Notes under the pieces: model-generated | The model's input: the letters and a program-made list of their open reading frames with translations, nothing else | Databases searched by the model: none | Told to the model about the DNA's origin: nothing | Program-made: the position numbers and the translations under genes | Part shown: piece after piece, positions 13,604 to 32,359 of the stretch | How the letters are laid out: every line of letters starts with the position of its first letter | Numbering within the stretch: position 1 is the first letter of the stretch | Assembly: GCA_020697715.1 (NCBI GenBank) | Contig: JAEHCO010000001.1 | Coordinates: forward strand, 2,222 to 66,221 | DNA from: Methanobacteriota archaeon | Lineage (GTDB): Archaea; Thermoplasmatota; Thermoplasmata; SG8-5; JAGLSY01 | Reading direction: 5' to 3' | DNA length: 64,000 nucleotides

Positions 13604-14713
13604 TCAGGCTACCTGACGAGCTTCTGGAGCTTCAGTTGCTGGCTCGGTCTTTTCAGCAGCCTTCACCTGATCCTCAAAGGTTGGGATCTTAGGTTCATCC
13701 GTGCGGAAGTTTATATCTCCTGCAAAGTGGCATTGTATGAAGTGACCGGTCTTGATCTCCTTGGTATCAGGCTTCTTCTCCTTACATATATCCTTTGCAT
13801 AAAGACATCTTGGGTGGAATGAACATCCAGAAGGTATGTTCATAGCTGATGGAAGATCTCCCTTGATCTCCGTCCTGCCACGCTCCATAGCCGGATCTGG
13901 TATCGGAACCGCGGAAAGAAGAGCTCTGGTGTATGGGTGATTAGAGTCGTGTATGATCTCCTCAGCTGGTGCGTATTCCACAATATTTCCCAGATACATA
14001 ACAGCGATATGATCGCTCATGTACCTTGACACGGAAAGATCGTGTGTTACGAACATGAAGGGGATATTGTATCTATCCTTCAGACCTAGCATGAGGTTCA
14101 TAATTCCTGCCCTGATCGATACATCCAGCATGGATACAGGTTCATCAGCCACTATGAACTCCGGCCTTAATGCCAGTGTTCTCGCGATAGCAACCCTCTG
14201 TCTCTGTCCACCACTCAACTCGTGTGGGTATCTTCCCATGTATTCGGAGGATGGTTTCAATTCCGCATACTCAAGTGCCTTTGCGACCATGTCCTCTCTT
14301 TCCTCATAGGATTCTCCAACACCGTGAACGAGCAATGGCTCCACCACTGTGCCGAATACCGTGAACCTTGGATTCAGAGATTCATATGGATCCTGGAAGA
14401 TCATCTGGACCTTTCGCCTGAAATCTTTCAGTTCAGAACCTTTCTTCGCGGCAATGTCCTCACCCTGGAAGAACATGTTACCTGCAGTGGGGTCTTCCAA
14501 TCGCACAAGGAGTCGACCGACCGTGGTCTTACCACAGCCACTCTCTCCAACAAGTCCAAGGATCTTTCCCTTTTTGACCTGGAATGAGATATCATCGACC
14601 GCATGTACGAACATAGATTCCTTACTCATCAATGATGATAGGAAACCTCCGGACATTTCGAAATATTTTCTTAGATTCACCACATCGAATATTACATCAT
14701 CGTCTGCCATCAT
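13604..14713 (-). CDS. Oligopeptide/dipeptide ABC transporter ATP-binding protein (OppF/DppF-like)
   Basis: 369 aa; Walker A GESGCGKTT, ABC signature LSGGQRQR, Walker B, C-terminal Opp-type extension. Confidence 0.9.
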   Translation of the reverse strand: MMADDDVIFDVVNLRKYFEMSGGFLSSLMSKESMFVHAVDDISFQVKKGKILGLVGESGCGKTTVGRLLVRLEDPTAGNMFFQGEDIAAKKGSELKDFRRKVQMIFQDPYESLNPRFTVFGTVVEPLLVHGVGESYEEREDMVAKALEYAELKPSSEYMGRYPHELSGGQRQRVAIARTLALRPEFIVADEPVSMLDVSIRAGIMNLMLGLKDRYNIPFMFVTHDLSVSRYMSDHIAVMYLGNIVEYAPAEEIIHDSNHPYTRALLSAVPIPDPAMERGRTEIKGDLPSAMNIPSGCSFHPRCLYAKDICKEKKPDTKEIKTGHFIQCHFAGDINFRTDEPKIPTFEDQVKAAEKTEPATEAPEARQVA

Positions 14714-15738
14714 CTCACCTCCTTCAATTGGCCATTGAACAGCTCAAGCGCGAAATGACACAAGGAAAAGTGGTTTGGTTCAACCTCGATCGTCTCTGGT
14801 TCCTGGTCCTTACATATTTCCTTTGCATATTTGCATCTTGGATGGAATTTACATCCAGATGGTGGGTTTGCAAGGTCAGGTGGTGAACCAGGGATAGAAT
14901 AGAGTGGTTTCTTCTCACCAATGATACTTGGGAAAGAAGCAAGCAGACCCATAGCGTAAGGGTTCGCCGGTCTCTCAAATACCGCATCTATATCACCGTA
15001 CTCGAAGATCCTTCCAGCATACATGATACCTATCTTCTCAGCCACTTCCGCGACCACAGATATATCATGAGTGATGATGATCATAGCCATGCCCAGTTTC
15101 CTCTGAAGATCTCTGATCTCCGCCAGGACACGATCCTGCATGATCACATCCAATGCAGTCGTTGGTTCATCAGCTATAATGAGCTTCGGGTTGCAGGCAA
15201 GAGCCATAGCGATCATACCCCTCTGTCTCATTCCACCACTGTACTCGTGTGGATATCCATCTATTCTCTCAGAATCAAGCCCAACGAGCTTGAAAAGCTC
15301 AAGAACTCTTTTTCTTGCTTCCTGCTTAGTGATATCATCATGAGCCCTTATGGCTTCCGCTATCTGGTCTCCGACCTTAAATACAGGATTGAAAGCATTC
15401 ATCGCACTCTGGAAGATCATAGCTACTTCATCCCATCTAAAGTCGACCATGGTATTCTCCACGAACTTCTTTCTCTTTCTGGGGGATAGAGCCATTTCCT
15501 CTTCGCTTCCGGCAATGACCGTACCGTCGAAGGTTATCGTACCTTCGACGATGTCACCGTTATCTGGAAGAAGCCTGGTGATCGCATAGGCTGCTGTTGT
15601 CTTACCACATCCAGATTCACCGACAAGGCCAAGGGTCTCCCCTCTGTCCAGCTTTAGTGTTACTTTCTCGACAGCCTTGACTGTTCCTCTTTGAATGCCG
15701 TAATGCACACTTACATTATCTATTTCTAACAGTGCCAT
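14710..15738 (-). CDS. Oligopeptide/dipeptide ABC transporter ATP-binding protein (OppD/DppD-like)
   Basis: 342 aa; Walker A GESGCGKTT, signature YSGGMRQR; 4-nt overlap with oppF-like gene. Confidence 0.9.
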   Translation of the reverse strand: MALLEIDNVSVHYGIQRGTVKAVEKVTLKLDRGETLGLVGESGCGKTTAAYAITRLLPDNGDIVEGTITFDGTVIAGSEEEMALSPRKRKKFVENTMVDFRWDEVAMIFQSAMNAFNPVFKVGDQIAEAIRAHDDITKQEARKRVLELFKLVGLDSERIDGYPHEYSGGMRQRGMIAMALACNPKLIIADEPTTALDVIMQDRVLAEIRDLQRKLGMAMIIITHDISVVAEVAEKIGIMYAGRIFEYGDIDAVFERPANPYAMGLLASFPSIIGEKKPLYSIPGSPPDLANPPSGCKFHPRCKYAKEICKDQEPETIEVEPNHFSLCHFALELFNGQLKEVR

Positions 15739-15743
15739 TTAAA

Positions 15744-18047
15744 TCACCTCCTCCTCAATCTTGGATTAACGATCTCATCAAACGCCCTTCCAAGAAGGAA
15801 GAAAGACAAACATATCAGAGTGATACATATGCCAGGCGGCAATAGCCACCACCATGCGGTCAATGCATTTGCATGCTGAACGAAGTTCAACATCATTCCC
15901 CAGCTCATAGTACGCGGGTCACCCAATCCAATGAAACTCAATGAAGCTTCAGAAAGGATAGCACCACTGACATAGAAGGTCATGTACAGAACAGCCAATG
16001 GGAGAATGTTCGGAGCTATGTGCCTGAACATGATCCTCGTTTTGCTTGCTCCAGTGACCCTGGCTGAGTCGATGAAAGGCCTTTCCTTCAAAGTAAGGAC
16101 CTCTGATCTTATGACCCTGGCAGTTCCACCCCAACCTACAATACCAATTATGAACACGATATTGAACACACTCGGTTCCATCAGCGCCGCAAGAATAATA
16201 AGCAGCGGAAGGCCAGGAAGTGTCAAGATAACATCAGTGAACCTCATCAATATTATATCGACATTACCACCGTAATAACCTGAGACCAAACCTACGAGCA
16301 TACCTATGCTAATAGAGAATATAGCCGCAGCGAAACCGACCAATAGAGCTATTCTGGAACCCAGAAGAAGCTGGCTGAGAATATCTCTACCCTGAGCATC
16401 TGTGCCTAGTGGGTATTCAATACCACTTGCTGGCTTCTCATCATCTGGTACTGCCCATGTTGGCTTCAATGGAGCGATCATGGTTCCAGTACATCTGTGA
16501 GAATATACCTTTCCAGGCATAGGGTTACCATCTGAATCCAGGTATGAAGTGACAATAACCACTTCTCCCTCACCAATATGCTGAGATGTTTCGAGAGCGA
16601 AATCATCGTATACGATAGGTGAACCAAATGTCACGCCTTGTAAGTTCTTTCTCCATTTGACTATACCAGTCGCATCCAGACCATATATCTGGGTGAAATC
16701 ATCTGTTGGAGTTGCTGTGTCATTGGTATTCTTCACTGCGACAAAGATAAGTCTTGAGTAGACAGAGTCATAATATGGTGCTGCCACACAGGAAGTGTCC
16801 AAAACACCTTTGAGAGTTGTGTCAAAGTCCATCTTCACCATTGACTCAGCAGTGTCCACTCTTGCAGTTGTTGATAATCTATAGATATGGCCAGTATCTG
16901 AACCAACCACAAGCTCATCACCATCGGCTCTAACAGATGGTGAAGTAAGGTTTCCGAGATCAAGTTCTGTAAGTGTTACGTCGATCTTGTATCCACCTTC
17001 CCATCCAGTCAATGGTGTCAGATCAGCTGTCAATACATGAACCCTACCATCATCCGTCGATGCATAGACATTGGTTGCAGCACATACTGGAAATGATGAC
17101 CAATGGTCCCTTCTGTCATTAGCAGCTATCTCACCGGGATTGTCTCCAGGGTAATCATATAATGGATCATATAGATCATATTCACCGATCTTAGTTCCAT
17201 CCGATGTATTGAATGCGTAGATGATACCATCGCTAGATCCAACATAGACCTGTTCACCAGTAGAAGATATCGCTGGTTGAGTCAGTGTTGAATTTGATAC
17301 CTGGATGGTAGCCCTGATAGTGTACGAACCATCTATAATGTATAATGAGCCAGATTCAGTAGATGCGGCAAAGAGATCATCGCTGTTTAGAGTACTAACC
17401 GCATCCTGATAAATATCCACACCGGAAACAGAAGCACCTAGAATGAAAGTCTCTACATCATCACCTGATGGTGGATATTCTGAATCTAATCCATCATGAA
17501 GGAGATACAGGACACCACTCTGTGTTCCAAAGAGCAGTCTGAAATCCATTCCATTCGGGCTCCTCTTGGCTCCGAAGTTCATAGCTTCAACATTGGTCGT
17601 GATCTCAGAGTTGGTCTCAAATGCACCTGACCATCCTCGCCATGCTTTGCTTCCATCAGCTGATGATTTGGCATAAAGACCATAAGGCGATATGACCGAA
17701 TTCATATCGCTAAGAGGCAGACCACCCGCCACATAGAACCTGTCAACTTGCTTGGCATTTGCAGAGGGTATTATCCTCGCAGCCGCACTGTTAGTCACTA
17801 TTCCATTGGTTGTCTGGTCCAAGAAATTCTCAACATTGACCACGTCCTCATCAGGAGCAAACCAGTCTATCGGATGCTTCAATCCCATGAAGGGGGAGGC
17901 AGCTGCGATCAAAATGAAAGCGATCATTATTCCAAGTCCCAGAAGACCTACTTTATTCTCCTTAAAGAGATTCCAGTTATGTGTAAATGAACGTCTTGAG
18001 TCTCTGAACTTTTCTTTTATTTGTTTTGATGTAACCATTTTTCTCAC
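15744..18047 (-). CDS. ABC peptide transporter permease (OppC/DppC-like) with about 450-aa extracytoplasmic insertion after TM1
   Basis: 767 aa; canonical DppC N-terminal TM and C-terminal core (LGTDAQGRDILSQ…); insertion has beta-propeller-like repeats (YVGSSDGIIYAF, VYASTDDGRVHVL). Confidence 0.8.
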   Translation of the reverse strand: MRKMVTSKQIKEKFRDSRRSFTHNWNLFKENKVGLLGLGIMIAFILIAAASPFMGLKHPIDWFAPDEDVVNVENFLDQTTNGIVTNSAAARIIPSANAKQVDRFYVAGGLPLSDMNSVISPYGLYAKSSADGSKAWRGWSGAFETNSEITTNVEAMNFGAKRSPNGMDFRLLFGTQSGVLYLLHDGLDSEYPPSGDDVETFILGASVSGVDIYQDAVSTLNSDDLFAASTESGSLYIIDGSYTIRATIQVSNSTLTQPAISSTGEQVYVGSSDGIIYAFNTSDGTKIGEYDLYDPLYDYPGDNPGEIAANDRRDHWSSFPVCAATNVYASTDDGRVHVLTADLTPLTGWEGGYKIDVTLTELDLGNLTSPSVRADGDELVVGSDTGHIYRLSTTARVDTAESMVKMDFDTTLKGVLDTSCVAAPYYDSVYSRLIFVAVKNTNDTATPTDDFTQIYGLDATGIVKWRKNLQGVTFGSPIVYDDFALETSQHIGEGEVVIVTSYLDSDGNPMPGKVYSHRCTGTMIAPLKPTWAVPDDEKPASGIEYPLGTDAQGRDILSQLLLGSRIALLVGFAAAIFSISIGMLVGLVSGYYGGNVDIILMRFTDVILTLPGLPLLIILAALMEPSVFNIVFIIGIVGWGGTARVIRSEVLTLKERPFIDSARVTGASKTRIMFRHIAPNILPLAVLYMTFYVSGAILSEASLSFIGLGDPRTMSWGMMLNFVQHANALTAWWWLLPPGICITLICLSFFLLGRAFDEIVNPRLRRR

Positions 18048-18051
18048 CTCC

Positions 18052-20025
18052 TCACAATTGAACCCTCGGGTCTAGATATGCATACAATATATCGGCAAAC
18101 ATGTTTCCGAGAACGGTCATCAATGCCATTATGTAGAATGCACCCTGAACGATTGGATAGTTGTGTGTTAAAGTTCCTCTAACGAGGAGCGTTCCCATTC
18201 CAGGCCACGAAAAGATCGTTTCTGTCAACACACCACCACTGATGATACCACCGAGTGAAAGTGCCATCGATGTCACAACAGGCAACATCGCGTTCCTTGC
18301 TGCGTGTCTGTACACGACCTGTCTGGTCTTCAGACCCTTTGCCTTGGCCGTTGTAATGAAATCCTCACCCATGACCTCAAGCATAGAGCTTCGCATCAGA
18401 AGGATAGTGCCTGCAAGACCTAAGACCGTCAAGGTCATCAGTGGTAAGGTCAAATGCCATAACACATCAAGGAAATATTCCATACCTAAAAGTGTCTCAC
18501 CTGTAGCAGAAACACCTCCAAGACCACTTAGAGGGAACCATTCAAGTTGAACAAAGAACACCCATTGAGCTATCAAAGCAGACCAGAAGATCGGCATAGA
18601 ATACAAGAATAGTGTTACCACGATTGTACCTAATTCAATAGCTGTACCTCTTCTCCATGCAACTACGACACCAACTACAATACCTATCATGTAGCTCAAT
18701 ATCAAAGAGCTTCCGAAAAGAAGTAGAGTTGGTGGCACTCTTTCTATGATAACATCCCATACTGGTCTGTTATCTTCGAAGGAATTGCCAAAATCGAACA
18801 GAAGCATTGATTTCATATAGAAAGCGAATTGTTCGAACATTGTCCTGTCCACAATATCAGTAGGATGACTCAGAAAGATCGTTGCTACATGCCCATCTGG
18901 TTGGGTTATAACTCCTTCCAAAGCACCGGCAACTCTGTCCCCATTGCTCTTAGTGGCTGATACATTCACCATTATGGTGGGAATTGATGCCTGATCATAG
19001 ATGAATGGGTATTCGGCTTCTAATCCTTCACCGACCCTGTGCATTGTGAAATCCGACAGGATCGTTGAGTCTGCTGGTAATACAAGACTGGAAGAAGCAG
19101 CATTGACAGGGAAAGATGAAGATATCTCAATTCCATTATCTGTCTCAACCACCATACTGAACATACCATTTATCGCAATAGGATAAGAACCATTGAACCA
19201 GGTTCCATCTTGTGTGAGAGTTAATGGTTGGGATGTGATATTGTCTGGTGATGTCACTCTGATATCAGCGGTTGTCGCACCTTCTATTTGTGTCGAAATT
19301 ATGATATTTTCGCCATTGACAGCCACCTCATTATCGGCCATTGCAGTTCCAAGGTTCCACATTTTGAATGATGGAGTAACTGCCACGATATCATCTGATA
19401 AATCCGTAGTCACTTCGAACGTCATAGCTGCAGTTGCAATATTCTGATAGATGTCCCTTGCCTCAAACACAACTGTGTAATTCCTGTTAGCACCAACAAT
19501 AGACGTGTGATCGATCAATGCCATGTATGCACCAACTACGACCTCATTCATGACGAGATCGGAAGTGGTTTCATACCCAGGGTCCGTGACACTGTACTTA
19601 ACATTCCTTATACCCGCCACATCTTCGGCTTCAAATATCACAGCAATGGTGCTATTATCTAATGCCAGTGCGTCAATATTCCATATTGAAGGCGGGTTAA
19701 GATCAGTAATTGTGGGATCCATATTTACATCAAATGATGTCTGAACAGTATCCCCTTCAGTCTCGACCTCGATAGTATAATGTCCAATCCTCGTTGGGTT
19801 GAAATTATATATGAAATGATTTCCCGGATATTCTACCTCTTTGGCGAAACCATATCTCAAGGCTATTTGATCCTTTTCAATCTCTGTTATTCCTGGCTTC
19901 ATGAAAAGGCCCATTGCCGCATCTCCAGGCATCAGCCTGAACAATACGAACAAAAGCACCAGGACAATCAACAGGGTGACTACCATATGTATGGTTCGTT
20001 TAACCAGATATTTCCTCAATCTCAT
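18052..20025 (-). CDS. ABC peptide transporter permease (OppB/DppB-like) with about 350-aa extracytoplasmic insertion after TM1
   Basis: 657 aa; DppB-type N-terminus and C-terminal permease core; inserted beta-rich Ig-like domain. Confidence 0.8.
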   Translation of the reverse strand: MRLRKYLVKRTIHMVVTLLIVLVLLFVLFRLMPGDAAMGLFMKPGITEIEKDQIALRYGFAKEVEYPGNHFIYNFNPTRIGHYTIEVETEGDTVQTSFDVNMDPTITDLNPPSIWNIDALALDNSTIAVIFEAEDVAGIRNVKYSVTDPGYETTSDLVMNEVVVGAYMALIDHTSIVGANRNYTVVFEARDIYQNIATAAMTFEVTTDLSDDIVAVTPSFKMWNLGTAMADNEVAVNGENIIISTQIEGATTADIRVTSPDNITSQPLTLTQDGTWFNGSYPIAINGMFSMVVETDNGIEISSSFPVNAASSSLVLPADSTILSDFTMHRVGEGLEAEYPFIYDQASIPTIMVNVSATKSNGDRVAGALEGVITQPDGHVATIFLSHPTDIVDRTMFEQFAFYMKSMLLFDFGNSFEDNRPVWDVIIERVPPTLLLFGSSLILSYMIGIVVGVVVAWRRGTAIELGTIVVTLFLYSMPIFWSALIAQWVFFVQLEWFPLSGLGGVSATGETLLGMEYFLDVLWHLTLPLMTLTVLGLAGTILLMRSSMLEVMGEDFITTAKAKGLKTRQVVYRHAARNAMLPVVTSMALSLGGIISGGVLTETIFSWPGMGTLLVRGTLTHNYPIVQGAFYIMALMTVLGNMFADILYAYLDPRVQL

Positions 20026-20101
20026 TTAAACATCTCCGATTCCTTCCTATCTATCTCTCTCGGGACTCCCGAAAAAAAGAAAAGGAAGGGCACTAGCTAA
20101 G

Positions 20102-23089
20102 CTAGGCCCTTATTCTTCTGAACACTGCTGTTGCGACAGCTGTGATCGAGAACAATGAAGCGATCAGCAAGAACGAGGGGAACGGTGTCTCCTGTTCAGT
20201 ACCGGGAGTGACAGTATCCTCATCAACATCTAGTATACCGTCTCCATCATCGTCGTCATCGTCTACGTCTGGGATGCCGTCATTGTCATCATCAGTGTCG
20301 GTGGCATCTGGAATACCGTCGCCGTCAGTATCGATTTCAACGGTGCCAGGGCCAGTGACCTCATCCAGATTAATGACATTTATCGGGATGGACTGTGTTC
20401 CATTCTTGTAGTCCTTCATATTGCCACCATCCGAATACTGACCGAATGCTATCACACTTACTGTGTACTCTTTGTCTGCGTCTATGTCCGCTGCCTGGAA
20501 CGAGAAGGTCGCTTCTCCGTTTGAATCTGTTGTTGCGAACAATGGCGAGACTATGGGACCTTCAGGGTCCACCTGTATCACCACATTCATTCCAGATAAT
20601 GGTTCATAATCATTACCATTCTTGGTCACAGTCGCAGTAACACTTGTCAAACCAGGTGCATCAGCTGCATCCTTATCATCCACCACATCAGGGTTGGCTT
20701 CCAGCTGTACTGCAAGGAAGTCCACACCTTCTGGATATGCGGTCATCAAGGTCAGTTTATTAGGTGCATCGTCGTATCCTTCGATCTCCGCACTCTTGAT
20801 CTCAATAAGAATACCTGAACCGTTCTTGTAAAGATCTGGGTACAATAATTCATCGTTTGGAACATATGGTGCTGTGAAAGTGGTTCTCAATTTCCCAGTT
20901 GAATCTGTTGTTCCATTGTATACGGACAGTGTTCCATTGGTCACTGCGAGTTCGACAAATGCGTTCTTGACTGGCTCTCTTGTAAGAGATCCATCAGCGT
21001 TCTTCGTGATCCCTGTAATAAGTACATCTACATCGGCAGTTGCATTAGATTCGATAGCTGATACTGTGTTAACGAATCTGGCATTCAACCACTTGTTTGA
21101 TGGTGGTCTCAGTTCAAGGATGGATCTCCAGTTGTATATGGAACCTGATGATCCTGTTACCCAGCCTGTGAACCTGTCTGCACGGTAAGCTTCGATATTG
21201 GTCCTGAAGTAGAGAACATCGTATGGCAGATCGTAAGCAATTGCCGCCTGAGCATCCAATATAAGGTTAAGCCTAGCATCTTCATCTCCAGTTTCCCTTG
21301 CATTATCGATTATCTCATCGAAACTGGTATTGGAATATCCTGGGTAATTCTGACCTGCTGCTGCTGTGCTGGAATGGAAGAAAGCATACAAGAAATCTGT
21401 TGGATCGCTACCAATGCTCCATCCAAGAATGTACATGTCAAAGTCCCTTTGATCAATATGGTTGACAATGGTTCCGAAATCCATAGCAATGGACTCTGCA
21501 TATATACCAACATCCTGCATCTGCTTGGCTATCATCAATCCAGCCTGTGCTCTTATCGGATCATAATCTGCAGGTGGTGTATATATCTCTATTTTGCCAC
21601 CATCTGCATTGCCGATGTTCGAGCCATCTGGGTTAAGCCACCAGTTACCATTTCCTGGCTCGGCTCCTGGATTGGTCAATTTATATCCAGCCCTTGAAAG
21701 AATATCTTTGGACTCCTCTGGGTCAAATGCATACCTTGGAATTGTATCATTGTACCATGTACTGATAGATGATACAGGTCCATCTCCAGGTATACCGAAG
21801 TTCTGAAGCAGTCTCTGAACAATGGTCTGCTTATCGATACAGTGAGCTATGGCCTTCCTTAGTGGCATACCTACATCATTACCATTATCGTCGTATCCGA
21901 AGGATCTCTTGTTTGGTCTCATATTGTAAGCCAAGTAGAAGAAACCTTTCTCAGCAGATTGCTTGACACCAAGATCTGGCTCGTTCATTATTTCCTGAAC
22001 GAAGGTTGGTGGAATGGACCATGCAATGTAGTCCACATCATTGTTCTTCAGAGCCAATACGGCCTGTTCTGCTGTCTTGTAGATCTTGAAAACCATTGCC
22101 TCGATGGTGGGTTGTTTTGCAACTTCATTGACATCGTAGGTAGGGTTCCAGCCCTCTTTGTAAAAGTGCTCCCTGTATGTGGTGATCTTTGAGCTAACAC
22201 CGACATTCCATGAGGAGAACTTGAATACTCCACTGCCAACTGGGTTTGGGTTGTCCCAAGCCAAAGCTGCTCCGGAATCCCATGCTTGTGGGCTGTCCTT
22301 GGTGTAGCCTGGATCTGACCAGATGAGCATTCCATCCTGTGGCTGTCCTGATTCTGTGTATCCCCATACGTGGTATGGGATTAAGAAAGCTGATAGTGTG
22401 TTCCTGAAAAAGTCAGCGAAAGGTGTCTGGAGCTCGAACCTCAGTCCGGCCTGCAGTTTATCCGCACTCTCGTAAACCTTCTGGATGTGTAGGTAATTTG
22501 TGTCAGTGTGGTTTGTGCCGGCTTCTCCGCCCTTGTCCATCAAACACTTGACACTGGATACCCAGTCTGGAAGCTGTGACTGAACGTGATATGCGAACAT
22601 AACATCTCTAATGGTCATCTGTGTTCCATCATGCCATGTCACGTCTGTAAAATCGTAGAAGATCGTTGTCTCAGCGAGACCTGTCATTCCAGGATCCCAG
22701 TCTTCCTCTGGTGTGAATCCAAAGATGCCCTGGTTCATGTCGTCCCAGCCCCAGGCGTCATCCGCGCCCTTGCCGGTACCATTGGCAGAGCCAACGGCTA
22801 TGTAAGGGATTATCTCATCCGTGTTTGGATCGGAGTTAAGTGGACCCTCATAGAGATATCCAATAACATTCCATGTCCAGACATCCCCTGCAACTAGGGG
22901 ATTCAGGGTCTTGAGATCATCCTGCATAGCTACTTTCAAAATATATGTGTCATCTTCACTCTGTCTTGTACCCGCATCTGGGGCCGCAACAGCTACTGGG
23001 AAAGCGCTTAATACCATCACAAATACAAATGCTATTGATAAAGCTGCTATCCCCTTGCTCCTAATACTATCATTTTTGACCATTGTCAT
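20102..23089 (-). CDS. ABC transporter substrate-binding protein (family 5, peptide/nickel type) with C-terminal Ca-binding repeat and TM anchor
   Basis: 995 aa; signal peptide, SBP family-5 core, C-terminal DTDGDGIPD…DDDNDGIPD thrombospondin-type-3-like repeats then hydrophobic anchor. Confidence 0.8.
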   Translation of the reverse strand: MTMVKNDSIRSKGIAALSIAFVFVMVLSAFPVAVAAPDAGTRQSEDDTYILKVAMQDDLKTLNPLVAGDVWTWNVIGYLYEGPLNSDPNTDEIIPYIAVGSANGTGKGADDAWGWDDMNQGIFGFTPEEDWDPGMTGLAETTIFYDFTDVTWHDGTQMTIRDVMFAYHVQSQLPDWVSSVKCLMDKGGEAGTNHTDTNYLHIQKVYESADKLQAGLRFELQTPFADFFRNTLSAFLIPYHVWGYTESGQPQDGMLIWSDPGYTKDSPQAWDSGAALAWDNPNPVGSGVFKFSSWNVGVSSKITTYREHFYKEGWNPTYDVNEVAKQPTIEAMVFKIYKTAEQAVLALKNNDVDYIAWSIPPTFVQEIMNEPDLGVKQSAEKGFFYLAYNMRPNKRSFGYDDNGNDVGMPLRKAIAHCIDKQTIVQRLLQNFGIPGDGPVSSISTWYNDTIPRYAFDPEESKDILSRAGYKLTNPGAEPGNGNWWLNPDGSNIGNADGGKIEIYTPPADYDPIRAQAGLMIAKQMQDVGIYAESIAMDFGTIVNHIDQRDFDMYILGWSIGSDPTDFLYAFFHSSTAAAGQNYPGYSNTSFDEIIDNARETGDEDARLNLILDAQAAIAYDLPYDVLYFRTNIEAYRADRFTGWVTGSSGSIYNWRSILELRPPSNKWLNARFVNTVSAIESNATADVDVLITGITKNADGSLTREPVKNAFVELAVTNGTLSVYNGTTDSTGKLRTTFTAPYVPNDELLYPDLYKNGSGILIEIKSAEIEGYDDAPNKLTLMTAYPEGVDFLAVQLEANPDVVDDKDAADAPGLTSVTATVTKNGNDYEPLSGMNVVIQVDPEGPIVSPLFATTDSNGEATFSFQAADIDADKEYTVSVIAFGQYSDGGNMKDYKNGTQSIPINVINLDEVTGPGTVEIDTDGDGIPDATDTDDDNDGIPDVDDDDDDGDGILDVDEDTVTPGTEQETPFPSFLLIASLFSITAVATAVFRRIRA

Positions 23090-23231
23090 TACCTCCTTAT
23101 ATGATATCCAGCAACGTAAATTCTGATGGAATTCAAGTCCGCTGTAAGTGGTGACTATATTTATATTTTATTGGAATTTGTTTTAGTCATCATTAGTTGA
23201 TATAACATCAGTTCATGGTATAAAAGCAAAC

Positions 23232-23343
23232 TTGTACAGATTTTTGTCTAATATAAATGGTTTGTGGTATAAGGCTTTGTACAAAACATTGTTCTAATGA
23301 TCGATCGGAGCGAATATAACGCCAAAAATCGAGACTTGTACAA
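23232..23343 (-). promoter_or_regulatory. opp operon upstream region with conserved motif copy b and three TTGTACA(A/G) palindromic half-sites
   Basis: Motif at 23232-23286 matches copies a and c; TTGTACA at 23232, 23278 and 23336. Confidence 0.5.
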
Positions 23344-24468: not shown

Positions 24469-24504
24469 AATTATAAATATGTAACCGGAGGTATATAAAG
24501 AGAT

Positions 24505-24545
24505 TTGTACGCGGTTTTGTCTAATATTTAAGGTTTGCGGTTTAT
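24505..24545 (-). promoter_or_regulatory. Conserved promoter/operator motif, copy c
   Basis: TTGTACGCGGTTTTGTCTAATATTTAAGGTTTGCGGT, 37-70 bp upstream of the wHTH regulator start; shares identical 13-mer TTTTGTCTAATAT with copy b. Confidence 0.45.
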
Positions 24546-25070
24546 TGAATGTAAAACAGCAGGAATTATACCCATCGCTGTACAGGTCTCCAGGGATAGT
24601 CCTTTTTGCGTTATGTCCAGATGATGGTTTCCGACCTCGAACACCTTCTTTGGAAGACCATGCGGACCGAGGCCAATGAGTAATAGCACAGATTTGCCTC
24701 TTTTGACCTGACTGGCCACTTCATCTGGAGCGATGCTTTTCTTCGCATCAGGCTTGCGAGTTGTGACGATCACATCACCAAATTGCGGAGGGAAACCTTT
24801 TTTCGGCATATCAAAAGCTTGAAAGCGACCAGCCTCGGCCAGTTCTATCAAGTACTGGCCGTTGTCTCCTATCGAAGTTGTTTCGGAGATCCACTCCACG
24901 ATATCTGCTGGTGTGCGCATTTCCCGATCATAGGGAAAGCCGAATGTAACTAGATTACAATCGAATGCCAGAGCGACCGGACCAGCTCTGGCCAGTGCCC
25001 TTCTGTGGGCTTCCCTTATCTTCTTCGGATCATAGCAATTGTACAGACCGAGGGTCATTCTTCCGGGCAT
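24528..25070 (-). CDS. SPOUT-class RNA methyltransferase-like protein (possibly tRNA 2'-O-methyltransferase)
   Basis: ORF track gives 24528-25262; the 5' extension would overlap folD, so start placed at internal Met (MPGRMTLGLY…); C-terminal knot-like motifs VLLLIGLGPHGLPK and LSLETCTAMGIIPAVL. Confidence 0.45.
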   Translation of the reverse strand: MPGRMTLGLYNCYDPKKIREAHRRALARAGPVALAFDCNLVTFGFPYDREMRTPADIVEWISETTSIGDNGQYLIELAEAGRFQAFDMPKKGFPPQFGDVIVTTRKPDAKKSIAPDEVASQVKRGKSVLLLIGLGPHGLPKKVFEVGNHHLDITQKGLSLETCTAMGIIPAVLHSINRKP

Positions 25071-25122
25071 GAGAGGGGACAATAGCCAATATTCAAATAG
25101 GCTTTTGGGTATATTCGACCGG

Positions 25123-26001
25123 ATGACAGCCAAGATCATTGATGGGAAGGGTATTGCGGAACAGGTGAAAGAGGAGCTTGGGCCAGCTATTAAGAGTTTG
25201 GGCGAAAGAGGTATAATCCCTGGACTGGCTGCCGTCATAGTGGGGGACGACCCCGCATCCAAGACCTATGTTGCGATGAAAGAGAGAGCATGTGATAGGC
25301 TGGGCATCAATAGTTTTGTGCATCGGCTTCCAGAGGAGACCACGGAATCCGAGCTACTGGCACTTGTTCAAGACCTGAATACCGATGATAAAATTCATGG
25401 CATCCTGGTCCAGATGCCAGTGCCCGATCATATCGACTCCAACAAGATACTAGATGCCATTGCCCAGGCAAAGGATGTGGACGGATTCAGCGCCGATTCC
25501 CTGGGAAAGATCATGTCCGGCAGGGAGTACTTCGTCCCCGCCACCCCCTTGGGCGTCATGGTCCTACTCGAAAGGTCGGGGATCGACCCATCTGGAAAGC
25601 ACGCTGTCATTGTTGGTCGAAGCAATATCGTGGGCAAACCACTGGCCAACCTCCTGATGCAGAAAAAGCAAGGAGCGAATGCCACGGTCACCATTTGCCA
25701 TTCCCGGACACCTGACGTGAGTGTTTTCACACGTCAGGCCGATATTCTTATCGCGGCCATCGGAGTGCCTGGATACATCAAGGCAGATATGGTCAAGCCT
25801 GGAGCTGTGATCATAGATGTGGGAATTAACAGCGTGGACGACCCAACGAAAAAGCGAGGCTACCGTCTTGTCGGAGATGTGGATTTTGATGCGGTATCGG
25901 AAGTGGCCAGTGCCATAACTCCGGTTCCCAAAGGTGTGGGGCCGATGACTATCGCGATGTTGATGAGTAATGTCGTCAAAGCCGCCGAGAATGGGCTTTG
26001 A
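25123..26001 (+). CDS. folD: Bifunctional 5,10-methylene-tetrahydrofolate dehydrogenase/cyclohydrolase
   Basis: Start placed at ATG 25123 (MTAKIIDGKG…); FolD motifs YVAMKERA, GILVQMPVP, VIVGRSNIVGKP. Confidence 0.9.
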   Translation: MTAKIIDGKGIAEQVKEELGPAIKSLGERGIIPGLAAVIVGDDPASKTYVAMKERACDRLGINSFVHRLPEETTESELLALVQDLNTDDKIHGILVQMPVPDHIDSNKILDAIAQAKDVDGFSADSLGKIMSGREYFVPATPLGVMVLLERSGIDPSGKHAVIVGRSNIVGKPLANLLMQKKQGANATVTICHSRTPDVSVFTRQADILIAAIGVPGYIKADMVKPGAVIIDVGINSVDDPTKKRGYRLVGDVDFDAVSEVASAITPVPKGVGPMTIAMLMSNVVKAAENGL

Positions 26002-26089: not shown

Positions 26090-28591
26090 TCAGCCCAATC
26101 TATCATACGGATTCTGGGATTCCACATACGAAACAGTACCCTCTTCGGATGGTTTCCCTTCTTCTATTTTTAGGTGACCGCTCTCATCATATTCGTCCTC
26201 ATCTGGCTCAGGCATGTCTGGATCCCTATCATCAGGATGTTGAGACTCAGGCTTTCGTCCAAAACCAAGGCCAGCCAGAACTCCCAGGATACCGGCTATC
26301 GCAGGTGCGATGACCGCCCAAAGAGGGATCTTCTCCTTTTCCACAACCCGAACTTCATCCGTGCCATTGAAGGTCAGAGTAGGCGCATCCAGGAAGTCCG
26401 CCACACCATCACCGTCCGAGTCCGGGGGAAGGGACGTGGCATCAAGAGGATCGGAGCCTGCCAGTATCTCGACGATATCACGCCAGCCATCGCCATCCGA
26501 GTCAGAATCCTCCAATCCATCGGTGAGGTTCAGGGTCTGATTTTGATAAATGACATTGGTATTGTTGCTATACTCGGTCAGATTGGACCAGACCGTGCCA
26601 TTGCTGTACTCGGTCAAGTTCGCCCACTGGGTGCCATTATTGTATTCTGTGAGATTCGCCCACTCTGTGGAGTTGGTGAAGTCTGTGAGATTGTTGTATA
26701 TCTGCTTCTCGATGAAATCTGGATCCATGAAATCCGCCACACCGTCGAGGTCAGCGTCGCCTGGCATGCTGGAATTGTCGGTCGTGTTCGTGCCGGATAT
26801 CACCTCTATTATGTCCAGCCAGCCATCATCGTCATCATCGGTATCTGCGTTATTGCCGATTCCATCGCCATCCGTGTCCAGGCTTTCGAGTGGATCAAAG
26901 GGGAAGATGTCATTGGTGTCCGGAACACCATCATCATCATCATCCAGATCCACAGAATCTGCCAGTCCATCACCGTCAAAGTCAGCAGAGATGGCAAGTG
27001 TGAATTGGGTTGATACCGCATTCCCATTATTGTCTGTGGCTGTCACTTCAACTTCGTAGCTTCCTGCCATATCTGGCCAGCCAGATAGGACCCCGCTGGC
27101 TGAGTCCATCCACAGCCAACTTGCATTGGTATTGATGCTCCATGTATGTGTGTCAGCTCCATCAACATCTGTAAGATCATAATCATTTGAATATAGCTGA
27201 CCAGCTTGGCCAGCGAAGATGTTGGCTGTGTCGATTGTCTGAAGGTCGTTGGTGTTCAGGGCATTGATGATGACATTTGTAGTGAAGGAACGGCCATATC
27301 CGTCTGTCGTGTTGTAAGTGAATCCATCGGTGCCAGTCCAGTTGGCATCAGGCAGGACCGACAGATTATTGCCAGAAAAGGAAACCTGGCAATTTGTTCC
27401 ATTTGAAAAGCCAGTTATCGTGAACTCGTTCTGGTCTGGTGCGTCATTGGCCAGCACGTTGATTATCGTGCTGGTGTCTTCTGTAATATTGAACTCGTCC
27501 CACAATGGGGTGTAGCCCCAGACTATCTTATAGATATTCAGCTCGCTTGGACCATTGTTAATACCTGTGGCAATATACTTATCGTCAGGACTCCATACCG
27601 CACACTGGGTGGTCAAGCCATAGGACACAGTAGAAATCAAAGTTAAGGTTATTCCATCGAAGAAAAAGAGGTAGCACTCTGGATTTCCTCCTGAGACACC
27701 AGCGACAATTAGGTAACGACCGTCAGAGCTCCAGTCTGCTGATAAGAGCGAGTTTGCTGAATTGAAGCTATCGATTATAGTTAGGGTATTACCATTAAAC
27801 ATCAGAACACTACACTCATATCCACCAGCTCCAGTGTCGCCTGAGATAGCCAAGTATTGACCATCAGGCCTCCAATTGACATCCTCTACATGAGCACCGT
27901 GTGAAAATTGAGCGACCATTATCAATGAAGATCCTGTAAAAAAGAGAACACGCACCTCAACAGCTGCATTGGTATCACCGCCCATTGCAAGATAGTTGCC
28001 ATCAGGGGACCAGTGTACGTCATTTACATCAGCACCGTGGTTGTAGCTGTCTAACTGGAAAAGGCTGGTACCATCAAAAATGAGGATCCAGACTAAATTG
28101 TCCACGCCACAGGAGGCAATATAATTGCCGTTTGGGCTCCAAGATACAGATAATACATCTGCCGAAGTAATGAAGCTGTCTATTTGGGTCAACATTGCTC
28201 CATTGAAAGCGAACACTCTAACACTATCATCCATACCACCCACAGCAATGTACTGGCCGTCTGGGCTCCAGTCGACAGCGTAACAGCTGAAGGCAAACGA
28301 ATAGCTGTCTATCTCATAGAGGTTATTGTTTAGTAAACGCAATACCCTAAGATTATCGCTTAGGCTTGCGATGGCCACATATTGGCCATCGGGGCTCCAT
28401 GCAATATCTCTAATCCCGTCATTATCATCATATTGCTCCAACAAGAATTTATCGGCGTATTGGGTCTCGAAAGTGGGACTTACTGCCTCTTGAGGCTGTG
28501 CTCCTTTTACATTGTCCAGCATCATAAACAATGAGCTGAAAACTAACATTAAACTTATCATCAATACGGTAATTTTCCTCATATCCTTCAC
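26090..28591 (-). CDS. Large membrane-anchored surface protein: beta-propeller head, Ig-like domain, Ca-binding TSP3-like repeats, NxT sequon stalk, TM, acidic tail
   Basis: 833 aa; signal peptide; seven WSPDGQY(I/V)A-type repeats; DFDGDGLADSVDLDDDDDG…; 12-aa repeats EWANLTEYNNGT; C-terminal hydrophobic helix and Asp/Glu/Pro tail. Confidence 0.75.
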   Translation of the reverse strand: MKDMRKITVLMISLMLVFSSLFMMLDNVKGAQPQEAVSPTFETQYADKFLLEQYDDNDGIRDIAWSPDGQYVAIASLSDNLRVLRLLNNNLYEIDSYSFAFSCYAVDWSPDGQYIAVGGMDDSVRVFAFNGAMLTQIDSFITSADVLSVSWSPNGNYIASCGVDNLVWILIFDGTSLFQLDSYNHGADVNDVHWSPDGNYLAMGGDTNAAVEVRVLFFTGSSLIMVAQFSHGAHVEDVNWRPDGQYLAISGDTGAGGYECSVLMFNGNTLTIIDSFNSANSLLSADWSSDGRYLIVAGVSGGNPECYLFFFDGITLTLISTVSYGLTTQCAVWSPDDKYIATGINNGPSELNIYKIVWGYTPLWDEFNITEDTSTIINVLANDAPDQNEFTITGFSNGTNCQVSFSGNNLSVLPDANWTGTDGFTYNTTDGYGRSFTTNVIINALNTNDLQTIDTANIFAGQAGQLYSNDYDLTDVDGADTHTWSINTNASWLWMDSASGVLSGWPDMAGSYEVEVTATDNNGNAVSTQFTLAISADFDGDGLADSVDLDDDDDGVPDTNDIFPFDPLESLDTDGDGIGNNADTDDDDDGWLDIIEVISGTNTTDNSSMPGDADLDGVADFMDPDFIEKQIYNNLTDFTNSTEWANLTEYNNGTQWANLTEYSNGTVWSNLTEYSNNTNVIYQNQTLNLTDGLEDSDSDGDGWRDIVEILAGSDPLDATSLPPDSDGDGVADFLDAPTLTFNGTDEVRVVEKEKIPLWAVIAPAIAGILGVLAGLGFGRKPESQHPDDRDPDMPEPDEDEYDESGHLKIEEGKPSEEGTVSYVESQNPYDRLG

Positions 28592-28648
28592 CCTGATTAT
28601 CTCTAAAAGGTAATCGGGCGGCGGGATAATAACATTTCCGTAATATTG

Positions 28649-31600
28649 TTAAGGAGTGTCTGGCTCCTCAGTTTCTTCAGCCTCTACCTCAGGTTCAGCC
28701 TCTGGTTCCGGTGTCTCTTCCGCAACCTCTGGTTTCCTTCCGCTTACTCCACGCTCTGCGAAGAAAACAGCCAGTGCTCCAAAGACTATGGCTGCAATCA
28801 ATGCTCCATAGGCCCATGTCGGGGTTTCTGAGACTGTTTCGGTTATTGTGACAGGGTCGGTAGTTTCATTGTTCCAAATGGTGTTGTTGTGATACTCGGG
28901 AATTGTGGTGTTGTGATACTCAGGAACCGTCTCATTGTTCCATATCGTGTTATTACTGTATTCAGTAACATTGTCCCAGACGGTTTGATTCACTGTCTGG
29001 TTATCCCATATTGTTTGATTGTTATATTCTATCACAATCAGAAAATCAGGATCCATATAGTCTGCCACGGTGTCATTATCAACATCTGATGGTATGGATG
29101 TATTGTCCAGTGGATCAAATCCACCAGCGATCTCTATGGCATCGTTCCAACCGTCCCAGTCATCGTCCAGATCTGCATTGTTACCGATTCCATCACCGTC
29201 TGTATCTGTATCCTCAGTTGGGTCTAGTGGGAGATCATCAGAGGTATCTGGAGTGCCATCATTATCATCATCTAGATCGGTTTTATCTGGATCCCCATCT
29301 CTGTCGGAATCCAGATTAACTGTTAGAATGAATGTTTGAGTATCGATTCCACCGTTACCATCGTCCACGATGATCTCAACATTGTAAGTGCCATCCTCAG
29401 TAGTGCTGGGTGTTCCGCTTATAATTCCACTGCTATCTATTGTAAGCCAACCAGTTGCGTTTCCTGCCAAGCTCCAGGTCGTTGATGGATCATCTGTGGA
29501 ATCATAATCCACCTCGTACAGTGCACCAGTGTTTGTAATTTCAATATCATTCGTTGTAATAATTGGTTCTGAATTTATCACTATGAGAGTGTAATTGAAG
29601 TATCCTTCTCGATTGATTGAATCTATTGCTGTGATATTGGCATAATATGTGCCCACATCTAAATTCTCTGGAGTTCCTGTCAGAACTCCAGAGTCTGAAA
29701 CAGACAACCAGCCAGTCATATTTGTATCAAGGTTCCAGTCAGTGATGGTGTTAAAGCCTGGATGAGGTTGAGGAGTACAATCAAGATCGATTACATAGAT
29801 CGAATCCTCCAAACATGTGTCCATAGCTGTAACTTGTGTAGTGGTCACTATTAGGGATATCGGCGTCAAGAAAGGATATGTTACCGTCTCCATAATGCCC
29901 CAGATATCAGTGAAATCCCAGCCTGTAAAAGTTAATTCCTGCTTCATCTCGATAGTGGTCTTGCCGATCCCGCTGGCAGTGCTCGGATTGCCGGATGTAT
30001 TGGTATCCCAGAAGCAGTTCATGGTGGAGTTAAGATCAATTCCTGCAAAGCCGCCAATTGAACTAGCTCCACTAGCATTTCCTGTGCTGTAGGAATTCAT
30101 AATAAAGCCAATAACATTATTTTGTCCAACAAAGCCACCGATCATACTACCGCTACTGGCATTACCAGTGCTATAGGAGTTCGTGATATCACCGCCATTA
30201 CATCCTACGAAGCCACCAACATTACCTGCAGTTCCGTTGGCACTGCTAGTACTGTAGCAGTTCGTGATAGCACCAATATTATATCCTACGAAGCCACCGA
30301 TCCACTGAACTCCGCTGATGACACCACCAGTGCTGTAGCAGTTCGTGATGGAGCCGTCATTATTATATCCTGCAAAACCACCAACATAATTTCCACTTCC
30401 AATGGCACTGGCACTAGCATCGCCAGAGCTATAGCAGTTTGAAATGGTGGCGCCGGGAGCATTTCGACCTACAAAACCACCAACATAATCACTAATTCCA
30501 AATATCCCACTAGCACTTGCACTGCCAGTACTGTAGCAATTCATTATAGAATCAGCATTCTGGCCAACGAAACCTCCAATATATAATTCGTACCCTATGG
30601 CATTCCCAATACTGTAGCAGTTTGTGATGGGGCCATCGTTCTGGCCAACGAAACCTCCTATCTGGATCGTACCGCTGGCACTGTCTGTGCTATAGGAGTT
30701 GGAAATATTGCCAGCATTACTTCCGATGAAACCACCTATATTACTATTGCCAGATGCACTGCCCTGGCAGTATGAATTGGTGATTGTGTTCGTATTCGCT
30801 CCGGCGAAGCCACCAACATAGGTTCCCCCGTTAGTGTTTCCGGTTGAATAGCAGTCGTCAATATTATTCTCATTGATTCCCACAAAACCACCTACATTAT
30901 CACCACTGCCTGTAACCATCCCAGTTGAATAACTGGAAGTGATCGGACCATGGTTCCAGCCCACAAAACCTCCGAATTTGTTACTTGTCGAATTTACTAG
31001 TCCCGTACTATAACAAATATCAATTATGTGACCAAAGGTGCTGTATCCCATGAAGCCGCCAATAGTTCCAGCCCCCGAAACATTACCTGTACTGTAACTG
31101 TTGGTTATTGAGCCCCCATTTCCACCAGATCCGGCAAAGCCCCCACTGTATGAGCCTGAAACATCCCCAGTGCTGTAGCAGTATGAAATGTCAGTATTAG
31201 TAGCCATATTGCCGATAAAACCGCCAGTTGATTGTGGGCCTGATACAAGACCTGTGGCATAGCAGTTGGTTATTTCTCTCGATGAATGGAATCCAGTAAA
31301 TCCCCCGGCATTATTACCGATGGCAGTAGCATTGCCAGTTGCATAGCAATTATTAATTGTGCTTTGACTTGTACCGACAAATCCTCCAACACGATCACCT
31401 GTTCCAGTTGCATCACCTGTACTAAAACAATTAACGATTATTCCATTGAAACCACTATCATGTCCAATAAAGCCACCGACATCATCTCGCCCATCGGCTG
31501 AGCCAGTGCTGTAACAGTTAGTTAATTGACTGTCATCATTCAATCCAATAAACCCACCAATCTCATCAGATGTACCAATTGCTGTTGCTTCGCTGTGGCT

Positions 31601-32359
31601 GTCAGAAACCGTACCATAATTTACTCCTAAGAGCCCTCCAACCTGATTGGAGCCCGAAGCGATACCAATACTACTGAGGTTTTGCAATGAGCCAGCACTG
31701 AGCCCGATCAAAACACCAATATAGACATTGCCAGTGGATGTGCCGTTGGAATTACAATCACTTATGATTGATGAACCACTTGAGGAACCAAGCAAGAGCC
31801 CTGCATAGCTGGTATTTGTATTTACTGAACCCTGACAGGAGATCCCCGTAATGATCCCTGAAGCACTACCGGCTAAACCTCCAACAGTATGATTACCTTT
31901 TATGTTAAGGCCAATGAAGATGATGTCCCTGATCTCGCTGTTTGGACCGGCATGACCAAAAAGTCCGACATAGCGTTGAGAGGAACGGTTGATGAAAAGG
32001 TCATTAATACTGTAGCCCTGGCCATCTAAGGAACCTTGAAAATCATCGACCCAATTACCAATTGGATCAAAACCCTCGAAGGCAGAACCATTTAAGTTCC
32101 ATGTTGAGGTCGCGCTGGCATCGATATCATTCATCAGAACATAATGGGCATTCAGATCCAGCTCCATTTCCTGAAGCTGGTTCACATTTGTTACCTGATA
32201 TGGATCTCCAGGAGTTCCGACACCCCCGCCTGAGAACAATGGGGCAGGAACTATCTCCATTCCCTCAACATCCGTAGTCATGTCCAGCATCACGAATGAT
32301 GAGCTGAAGATCATAGCTAAACTTATCAATAATGTAATAGATTTTTTCATATCCTTCAC
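28649..32359 (-). CDS. Giant surface protein with GLUG-motif repeat array, Ig-like domains, TSP3-like Ca-binding repeats, NxT sequon stalk, TM anchor
   Basis: 1236 aa; signal peptide; more than 20 repeats of VGGFVGxNxGxITNCYSTG type; C-terminal module paralogous to 26090-28591 and 32416-35610. Confidence 0.75.
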   Translation of the reverse strand: MKDMKKSITLLISLAMIFSSSFVMLDMTTDVEGMEIVPAPLFSGGGVGTPGDPYQVTNVNQLQEMELDLNAHYVLMNDIDASATSTWNLNGSAFEGFDPIGNWVDDFQGSLDGQGYSINDLFINRSSQRYVGLFGHAGPNSEIRDIIFIGLNIKGNHTVGGLAGSASGIITGISCQGSVNTNTSYAGLLLGSSSGSSIISDCNSNGTSTGNVYIGVLIGLSAGSLQNLSSIGIASGSNQVGGLLGVNYGTVSDSHSEATAIGTSDEIGGFIGLNDDSQLTNCYSTGSADGRDDVGGFIGHDSGFNGIIVNCFSTGDATGTGDRVGGFVGTSQSTINNCYATGNATAIGNNAGGFTGFHSSREITNCYATGLVSGPQSTGGFIGNMATNTDISYCYSTGDVSGSYSGGFAGSGGNGGSITNSYSTGNVSGAGTIGGFMGYSTFGHIIDICYSTGLVNSTSNKFGGFVGWNHGPITSSYSTGMVTGSGDNVGGFVGINENNIDDCYSTGNTNGGTYVGGFAGANTNTITNSYCQGSASGNSNIGGFIGSNAGNISNSYSTDSASGTIQIGGFVGQNDGPITNCYSIGNAIGYELYIGGFVGQNADSIMNCYSTGSASASGIFGISDYVGGFVGRNAPGATISNCYSSGDASASAIGSGNYVGGFAGYNNDGSITNCYSTGGVISGVQWIGGFVGYNIGAITNCYSTSSANGTAGNVGGFVGCNGGDITNSYSTGNASSGSMIGGFVGQNNVIGFIMNSYSTGNASGASSIGGFAGIDLNSTMNCFWDTNTSGNPSTASGIGKTTIEMKQELTFTGWDFTDIWGIMETVTYPFLTPISLIVTTTQVTAMDTCLEDSIYVIDLDCTPQPHPGFNTITDWNLDTNMTGWLSVSDSGVLTGTPENLDVGTYYANITAIDSINREGYFNYTLIVINSEPIITTNDIEITNTGALYEVDYDSTDDPSTTWSLAGNATGWLTIDSSGIISGTPSTTEDGTYNVEIIVDDGNGGIDTQTFILTVNLDSDRDGDPDKTDLDDDNDGTPDTSDDLPLDPTEDTDTDGDGIGNNADLDDDWDGWNDAIEIAGGFDPLDNTSIPSDVDNDTVADYMDPDFLIVIEYNNQTIWDNQTVNQTVWDNVTEYSNNTIWNNETVPEYHNTTIPEYHNNTIWNNETTDPVTITETVSETPTWAYGALIAAIVFGALAVFFAERGVSGRKPEVAEETPEPEAEPEVEAEETEEPDTP

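Follow-up and report, generated by a model that had tools for sequence, protein, structure and literature searches.

A 33-bp direct-repeat promoter module as the predicted operator of a membrane-anchored winged-helix regulator beside an Opp-type transporter operon in Thermoplasmata

We find that an Opp/Dpp-type ABC transporter operon, the gene for a winged-helix (wHTH) protein next to it and a nearby membrane-protein gene share a promoter module that is built from a 33-bp direct-repeat unit and is conserved at the same promoters across related Thermoplasmata. On balance we favour the reading, predicted from sequence, that this module is the activating operator of the adjacent membrane-anchored regulator and defines a small, dedicated and autoregulated regulon. 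The DNA analysed is a 64-kb window from an uncultured Thermoplasmata archaeon, in which the genes of interest all lie on the minus strand in the order DUF531, 355-aa wHTH regulator, Opp/Dpp-type ABC operon, 193-aa membrane-protein gene and an overlapping 209-aa gene. Relatives of the regulator carry the names Thermoplasmata, Methanomassiliicoccales or Proteinoplasmatales SG8-5. Literature searches on HVO_0163, on archaeal membrane-bound winged-helix regulators and on oligopeptide regulators of Thermoplasmata returned no prior description of the family, the motif or the regulon.

Results

Three copies of one motif lie at three promoters

The pattern TTGTAC-N4-TTTTGTMTAATAT-N6-TTTGYGGT matches the window three times with no mismatch, at 13428-13464, 23232-23268 and 24505-24541, in each case on the plus strand and thus antisense to the genes, and it finds no match in 100 dinucleotide shuffles. 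A first-pass annotation of this DNA had placed a motif upstream of three transcription units, and the copies are indeed present there, each beside a promoter; the spacers it gave, N3 and N4, have to be replaced by N4 and N6, as the consensus in its literal form returns no match even when three mismatches are allowed. All three copies are intergenic, with the box-2-like part of the copy at 24505 falling within the 3' end of DUF531. A search of the window for the core ATAYTANACAAAA-N4-GTACAA with up to three mismatches recovers these three sites and one three-mismatch match inside an ORF at 43905, and a 41-column weight matrix scores the three sites at 54.5-56.8 bits, with no further position in the window above 18 bits and a shuffle maximum of 3.1.

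Neither Rfam, at the gathering threshold, nor ARAGORN finds anything at the motif. Rfam's sole match within the 64 kb is to a tRNA (7258-7369, plus strand; 49.4 bits), which ARAGORN misses and whose length of 112 nt suggests an intron-containing archaeal tRNA. Avoidance of GTAC as a restriction or methylation site was considered and rejected, the observed/expected ratio being 1.08, and a box 1-box 2 pattern with an N6 spacer was likewise discarded, its four matches being at the chance level and the true spacer being N5.

The two additional TTGTACAA palindromes noted earlier at opp are found at 23277-23284 and 23336-23343 and are the only two in 64 kb; at least two such palindromes occur in 13 of the 100 shuffles. 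The one at 23336-23343 is missing from the closest relative and is probably incidental or lineage-specific (Table 1).

The full module consists of two tandem copies of a 33-bp unit

Read on the gene strand, the unit of 33 bp is tACAAA-N5-GTAC(C/A)A-N7-TTTWTAT; within it, two direct TAC(A/C)A boxes stand at a spacing of 12 bp (tACAAA-N5-GTACMA), and a TATA-type element comes 7 nt after them. Full modules share the consensus ttTACAAA...ctGTACCAcAAag.aTTTATATTAtACAAAA..CtGTACAA.TTTGcTTTTATA, and the profile self-similarity of full modules peaks at an offset of 33 bp (0.344, compared to at most 0.167 at other offsets), from which we conclude that the module is a tandem duplication of this unit. 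The opp and membrane-protein promoters contain two units, that is, four direct TAC boxes with a spacing of 12-21-12, while the regulator's own promoter has the proximal unit alone because DUF531 coding sequence takes up the remaining space. The TATA-type element of the upstream unit is the TATA-like element inside the module, whose presence on the gene strand had been pointed out in the first-pass annotation; that of the downstream unit is the TATA box nearest the gene and is the functional one. The coordinates of these elements are collected in Table 1.

The same annotation described TTGTACA palindromic half-sites, a description that does not survive comparison with relatives, which keep only the TACAA(A) half (e.g., cattacaaac, cttacaaaag). 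The conserved form is one of four direct repeats in a 33-bp tandem unit rather than a palindromic organisation, and the core ACAAAA-N4-GTACAA is not self-complementary and lacks the dyad of a MarR/ArsR-type operator.

Table 1. Coordinates of the promoter modules, their elements and the associated genes in the 64-kb window; box and TATA sequences are as read on the gene strand
Feature	Position	Strand	Remarks
opp distal promoter P1: two-unit module + TATA	23219-23284	-	kept in L001, L003, L005, L030, L058, L066, L077, L100-L103
P1 box 1, GTACAA	23277-23282	-	gene-strand reading
P1 box 2, ATACCACAAA	23261-23270	-	gene-strand reading
P1 TATA-like element + box 3, ATATTAGACAAAA	23242-23254	-	gene-strand reading
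P1 box 4, GTACAA	23232-23237	-	gene-strand reading
P1 TATA, CTTTTATA	23219-23226	-	gene-strand reading
Second conserved opp TATA-like element with A-rich BRE-like flank, AAAATATAAATATAG	23155-23169	-	about 62 nt downstream of P1
Third TTGTACAA palindrome, upstream of opp module	23336-23343	.	missing from closest relative L001
Regulator promoter: single proximal unit + TATA	24492-24527	-	arrangement shared by orthologous regulators; variant cores in distant lineages
Regulator promoter TATA-like element + box 3, ATATTAGACAAAA	24515-24527	-	
Regulator promoter GTACAA	24505-24510	-	
Regulator promoter TATA, TTTATATA	24492-24499	-	
Degenerate box-2-like AAACCGCAAA	24534-24543	-	within DUF531 3' end (stop 24528-24530); poorly conserved in relatives
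Membrane-protein promoter: two-unit module + TATA	13414-13478	-	kept in L001/L032, L003, L080, L091
Membrane-protein promoter box 1, ATACAA	13473-13478	-	
Membrane-protein promoter box 2, GTACCACAAA	13457-13466	-	
Membrane-protein promoter ATATTATACAAAA	13438-13450	-	
Membrane-protein promoter box 4, GTACAA	13428-13433	-	
Membrane-protein promoter TATA, TTTTATAT	13414-13421	-	
Putative regulator, 355 aa	23401-24468	-	TM 12-30, Ig-like 52-149, TM 173-192, winged helices 214-278 and 293-350
opp operon, Opp/Dpp-type ABC transporter	13604-23089	-	995-aa SBP_bac_5 binding protein, permeases of 657 and 767 aa, two ATPases
Third transcription unit	12195-13395	-	193-aa single-pass membrane protein (12814-13395) and overlapping 209-aa membrane-protein gene (12195-12824)

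The boxes sit just upstream of the TATA box

On the gene strand, 5-6 nt separate the end of the last box (box 4, about -42 to -37) from the TATA box downstream in each of the three window promoters. In the regulator promoter the TATA box covers positions -31 to -24, counted from the ATG at 24468, and the geometry of the membrane-protein promoter suits the second ATG of that gene, at 13392. Since an archaeal TATA box is centred 26-27 bp upstream of where transcription begins (PMC5512572), the placement of these elements about 24-27 nt before the ATG indicates that the regulator and membrane-protein transcripts are probably leaderless; further first genes in the window show a comparable, leaderless-like geometry. 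The BRE positions at the module promoters read tctc, tcgc and ttgc and are pyrimidine-rich, those of several other promoters in the window being A-rich, in a lineage without a BRE consensus.

The opp module differs in its position, 143 nt upstream of the ATG, where it has its own TATA box. The second conserved TATA-like element downstream of it (Table 1) is followed by a conserved segment containing GAATTC (~23120-23140) and by a Shine-Dalgarno sequence, and may be either a leader element or a proximal promoter (P2) that has an operator of its own. The whole element (23105-23169, minus strand) consists of a consensus-like A-rich BRE and TATA, AAAACTATAAATATAG, located 60-100 nt downstream of the module, after which come CACC..TTCAC..CGCCAC, an GGAATTCC...GGATTTC segment and then the Shine-Dalgarno sequence. 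It is kept in L001, L003, L005, L030, L035, L040, L050, L062, L064, L077 and L100-L102, at a distance from the module that differs among lineages. For the conserved leader RNAalifold predicts 3 base pairs (-0.7 kcal/mol), none of them with covariation, which leaves an RNA structure unsupported.

The adjacent gene encodes a predicted membrane-anchored protein with two winged helices

Pfam assigns PF24266 (HTH_HVO_0163_N) to residues 223-282 of the putative regulator and HTH_20/MarR to residues 291-343, with a weak Big_1 match at 62-126. HTH_20, MarR_2, MarR and HTH_5 all score above their cut-offs, identifying winged-helix domains of the MarR/ArsR type, and the DNA-binding domains also match the Penicillinase_R family; sequence matches in the PDB, to 5duk and to the ArsR protein 6uvu, cover each winged helix separately. 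There is no Trans_reg_C or HAMP match in Pfam, and no homology to ArnR or ToxR/CadC by that measure.

In an AlphaFold2 model (mean pLDDT 82; pTM 0.39, a value expected for flexibly linked domains) two transmembrane helices flank a beta-sandwich and the two winged helices follow, with the boundaries listed in Table 1; the hydrophobic segments are also evident in the alignment. As modelled, and with its membrane insertion predicted, the protein belongs to the functional class of membrane-bound one-component transcription factors. Foldseek relates it to Ig-like S-layer and macroglobulin domains and to tandem-winged-helix proteins such as RPC34, ESCRT-II and ScpB. A paralogous relation between its Ig-like ectodomain and the Big_1 domain in the opp binding protein was considered and rejected as unsupported (BLASTP E = 1.2).

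In an alignment of 32 sequences both recognition helices are invariant (NGTLSHHL and SQQS.SYN), and the ectodomain is highly variable. The invariance of the recognition helices parallels that of the DNA core, a co-conservation with which binding by another factor is also compatible.

Module and regulator are conserved together

In the loci of relatives with regulators of 73%, 71% and 56% identity, the gene order DS-FolD-DUF531-wHTH-opp-190-aa gene is preserved and the corresponding promoters bear the module; the wHTH, opp and membrane-protein promoters all have it in L001, L003, L005, L030/L091 and L058/L032. Between the regulator gene and opp in L005 lie a DDE_Tnp_1 transposase and several small ORFs (11255-15289), the module staying at the opp promoter, and in L101 (7003-7553) the whole module and about 170 bp of flank are tandemly duplicated ahead of the gene for the opp binding protein; in the distal copy an insertion of 1 nt separates box 3 further from box 4, and a good TATA is lacking.

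We scanned 185,579 genomes, one per species and all distinct from the window's own contig, with the pattern ATAYTANACAAAA-N4-GTACAA, and find 93 loci, with 27 core sites in Thermoplasmata and 71 sites in other taxa. Each of the 27 has the extended architecture. A TATA-type element lies 4-7 nt downstream of 26 of the 27 Thermoplasmata sites compared to 3 of the 71 elsewhere, which are chance matches, and an upstream ACC box accompanies 19/27 and 3/71, respectively. The core positions in this set are invariant by construction, being the search pattern itself, and the evidence for conservation comes from the flanks and from loci fetched independently. Four further lineages, with regulators 38-44% identical, were retrieved by protein alone and so independently of the DNA pattern; in all four the wHTH and opp genes are still paired and each of the two promoters has the module, despite different other neighbours. 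A homologue of the regulator is encoded directly upstream of every motif-bearing opp promoter with enough flank, down to 40% identity, and in lineages at ~40% identity the regulator's own promoter has a variant core, e.g., ATATGATACAAAG-N4-GTACAA-N5-ATTAAATA. A site at both the regulator's own promoter and the adjacent target promoter, conserved across species, is the arrangement of an autoregulated local regulon.

Copies of the core number 2-3 per scanned genome and fall at orthologous promoters; in SF.bin11, the 73%-identical relative, for which the scan covers the whole genome, and in RS_8_37 the exact core is confined to the same three promoters, which extends the motif scan beyond the window as had been suggested. 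The weight matrix gives real sites in related loci 31.8-62.6 bits, and over 325 kb of such loci it detects no additional site besides the upstream unit in L052 (19.4 bits, exactly 33 bp upstream). Across this related DNA there are none of the copies in coding sequence or at unrelated intergenic positions that would speak for chance occurrence. Among the matches listed from a scan of metagenomes with the core pattern, only L116, L130 and L174 are genuine, and an unrelated marine coding sequence dominates the others.

The genes downstream of the Thermoplasmata sites encode the regulator, the opp SBP_bac_5 protein or a membrane protein of 187-192 aa, with exceptions in L054 and L089. The exceptions are a 408-aa secreted protein (L054; site 5116-5156, minus strand) and a 917-aa secreted repeat protein (L089; two sites), and in L052 a module copy (3947) lies upstream of a second opp-type binding-protein paralogue. 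In L052, L054 and L089 no regulator gene is found within the 8 kb of sequence covered. The regulon may extend to secreted proteins in some lineages.

Properties of the neighbouring genes

The Opp permeases (15744-20025, minus strand) are unusually large, with long extracytoplasmic insertions in which orthologues show faint PQQ_2/beta-propeller and DUF7743 matches, and the opp binding protein has C-terminal Ig-like domains and a membrane anchor. The 193-aa membrane protein has no Pfam match and is fast-evolving, with only 3 homologues among 5.8 billion proteins; its predicted ectodomain resembles a generic LEA_2/ApaG/TMEM106B-like beta-sandwich in a fold search (one of five AlphaFold2 models was confident). 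The ORFs called for DUF531 (24528-25262, minus strand; 244 aa, TTG start) and FolD (25039-26001, plus strand) overlap by >200 nt. DUF531 orthologues are 179-182 aa long, which places its true start probably further downstream and makes the overlap an ORF-calling artefact.

Elsewhere in the window, two 130-nt stretches on the minus strand (28592-28720 and 32360-32488) are 88% identical. They span the coding sequence for the acidic C-terminal tail of the upstream gene and the promoter region of tandem paralogues that encode giant secreted WD40/Ig-domain proteins (26090-28591 and 28649-32359). This second shared upstream region is most simply explained by tandem gene duplication.

Discussion

Many related genomes retain the module in front of the same genes, so that it is very probably the binding site of the adjacent regulator. 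An autoregulated regulon tied to this wHTH gene, as first proposed from the window alone, is strongly favoured by comparative genomics, with binding by the wHTH protein itself a matter of inference. We propose that the membrane-anchored protein would bind one unit per molecule, with each of its tandem winged helices contacting one box; from just upstream of the pyrimidine-rich, apparently non-consensus BRE, the bound regulator would help TBP and TFB to load and, on a signal received through its extracellular Ig-like domain, would switch on three targets: its own gene, the opp operon and the LEA_2-like membrane-protein gene. That the sites lie upstream of an apparently non-consensus BRE makes activation the most likely outcome of binding. 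Binding just upstream of the BRE, at promoters whose BRE/TATA elements are weak, is typical of archaeal activators (PMC5512572), and this upstream-activating position is the one that the boxes occupy in the window (3/3) and, by their distance to the TATA-type element, at nearly all Thermoplasmata sites (26/27). A more far-reaching version is tentative: the regulator could represent an undescribed family of archaeal membrane-tethered factors that couples the sensing of extracellular peptide or protein to activation, with two winged helices reading the direct-repeat pair and the upstream unit serving as a second TBP landing site or tandem promoter.

The sign of regulation is the point at which another reading comes closest, namely that the same protein on the same operator is an autorepressor, its binding at boxes 3 and 4 covering the upstream TATA-like element and blocking TFB and TBP, and an extracellular or membrane signal de-repressing opp. 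The DNA-binding domains match MarR, ArsR (HTH_5), HTH_20 and Penicillinase_R, and winged-helix proteins of these types are mostly repressors of adjacent transporter genes; moreover, box 4 touches the distal edge of the BRE, such that exclusion of TFB is plausible, box 3 is fused to the conserved TATA-like element, and opp has a separate, strong-looking proximal promoter (TATA/BRE 62 nt downstream). We nonetheless regard repression as rather unlikely, as all boxes are upstream of the functional TATA box and none covers it or the transcription start, over which characterised archaeal repressors usually act (PMC5512572), and a non-consensus BRE, which these promoters seem to have, is typical of those that depend on an activator. 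The identity of the binding protein is a separate matter, and another trans-acting factor, for instance one of the Lrp/AsnC or TrmB type encoded elsewhere, might bind the module, leaving the wHTH gene a mere member of the regulon. The protein-site link is inferential, the boxes are AT-rich like many archaeal operators, and the sites in L052, L054 and L089 lack a regulator gene within the 8 kb covered; yet in every lineage examined the regulator gene adjoins the motif-bearing opp promoter, its own promoter always has a unit even where all other neighbours differ, the direct-repeat pairs suit a tandem winged-helix protein, and recognition helices and site are co-invariant, all of which makes a different factor improbable.

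A scheme that dispenses with a dedicated regulator, in which two TATA-type elements 32-33 bp apart form tandem core promoters whose flanks are read by a specialised TBP or TFB paralogue, accounts for the TATA-type element that ends every 33-bp unit in the same register, and in L100 a TBP gene is found a few kb away. It fits poorly with a module that is limited to two or three promoters per genome and travels with the wHTH gene, with the single unit at the regulator promoter and with the different, A-rich BRE of other promoters in the window, and we consider it very unlikely. The repeats might also be non-regulatory remnants of mobile elements or products of local duplication, and the duplication of roughly 170 bp in L101 shows that the region can duplicate. 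However, synteny of the copies holds across lineages with regulators of only 40-73% identity, the stretches between boxes vary freely, and there are just three copies in 64 kb, with no terminal inverted repeats and no resemblance to MITE- or REP-like elements. A structured RNA is hard to reconcile with the lack of an Rfam match at the module and with its location upstream of the predicted start of leaderless genes. The syntenic conservation together with the Rfam and RNAalifold results effectively excludes these non-regulatory and RNA readings.

Taking the module as the predicted activating operator of the adjacent regulator, its layout would work most like that of the EarA sites in the Methanococcus fla promoter. 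At the fla promoter of Methanococcus maripaludis, too, four 6-bp boxes lie directly upstream of a weak BRE/TATA in an activator-dependent arrangement, and EarA is thought to recruit TFB (PMC5512572). The EarA box, TACATA as quoted in PMC6396743, shares its TACA core with the boxes described here. Beyond the layout the two differ: EarA is a small soluble protein that acts on archaellum genes, whereas in the present module the tandem unit is 33 bp long and has a TATA-like element within it, and the predicted target is a peptide transporter. ArnR and ArnR1 of Sulfolobus acidocaldarius are membrane-anchored archaeal factors that activate via two cis boxes in the target promoter, but in ArnR the HTH is N-terminal, a HAMP/sensor domain follows and the two TM helices come last, at the C-terminus, and the boxes are inverted repeats, TCGAC-N5-GTCGA (PMC6396743). 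In the present regulator this order is reversed, with TM, Ig-like ectodomain and TM preceding two C-terminal winged helices; the domain families are unrelated, and an extracellular sensor would be paired with direct-repeat boxes.

In bacteria, ToxR and CadC combine an extracytoplasmic sensor and a cytoplasmic winged helix in one polypeptide, bind direct repeats beside the core promoter and usually activate; they have an N-terminal OmpR-type (Trans_reg_C) domain with a single winged helix and serve the sigma-70 machinery rather than TBP/TFB. The MarR/ArsR local regulators provide the winged-helix domain families and the precedent of autoregulation from beside a transporter operon, but in their classical form they are soluble homodimers on inverted repeats that overlap the promoter, in contrast to two winged helices in one membrane-anchored chain with direct repeats upstream of TATA. 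Ptr2 and TFB-RF1, in the account given of them in PMC5512572, likewise have sites upstream of BRE/TATA at sub-optimal promoters and activate by recruiting TBP or TFB. They differ in being soluble proteins of the Lrp or other families, with palindromic sites and no link to an ABC transporter. Since domain order and domain families differ, and the sites are direct rather than inverted repeats, the system stands outside the EarA, ArnR and ToxR/CadC families. What we describe is a small new regulon and no new principle, as local, autoregulated control of a transporter from upstream of TATA is already familiar.

For uncultured archaea the known cis-regulatory motifs are very few, and characterised archaeal activators or membrane-bound transcription factors number only a handful. 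The loci described here offer a sharply defined 33-bp unit, a clear candidate protein with a soluble DNA-binding fragment that could lend itself to expression and a compact, conserved set of targets, which renders the control of peptide uptake by sediment Thermoplasmata (including Proteinoplasmatales SG8-5 and Methanomassiliicoccales-related lineages) testable in vitro without cultivation, and the motif lets annotators recognise the regulon in metagenome-assembled genomes. If the reading of membrane-tethered sensing is true, this would be a regulatory design unreported in archaea, in benthic lineages that are considered protein degraders.
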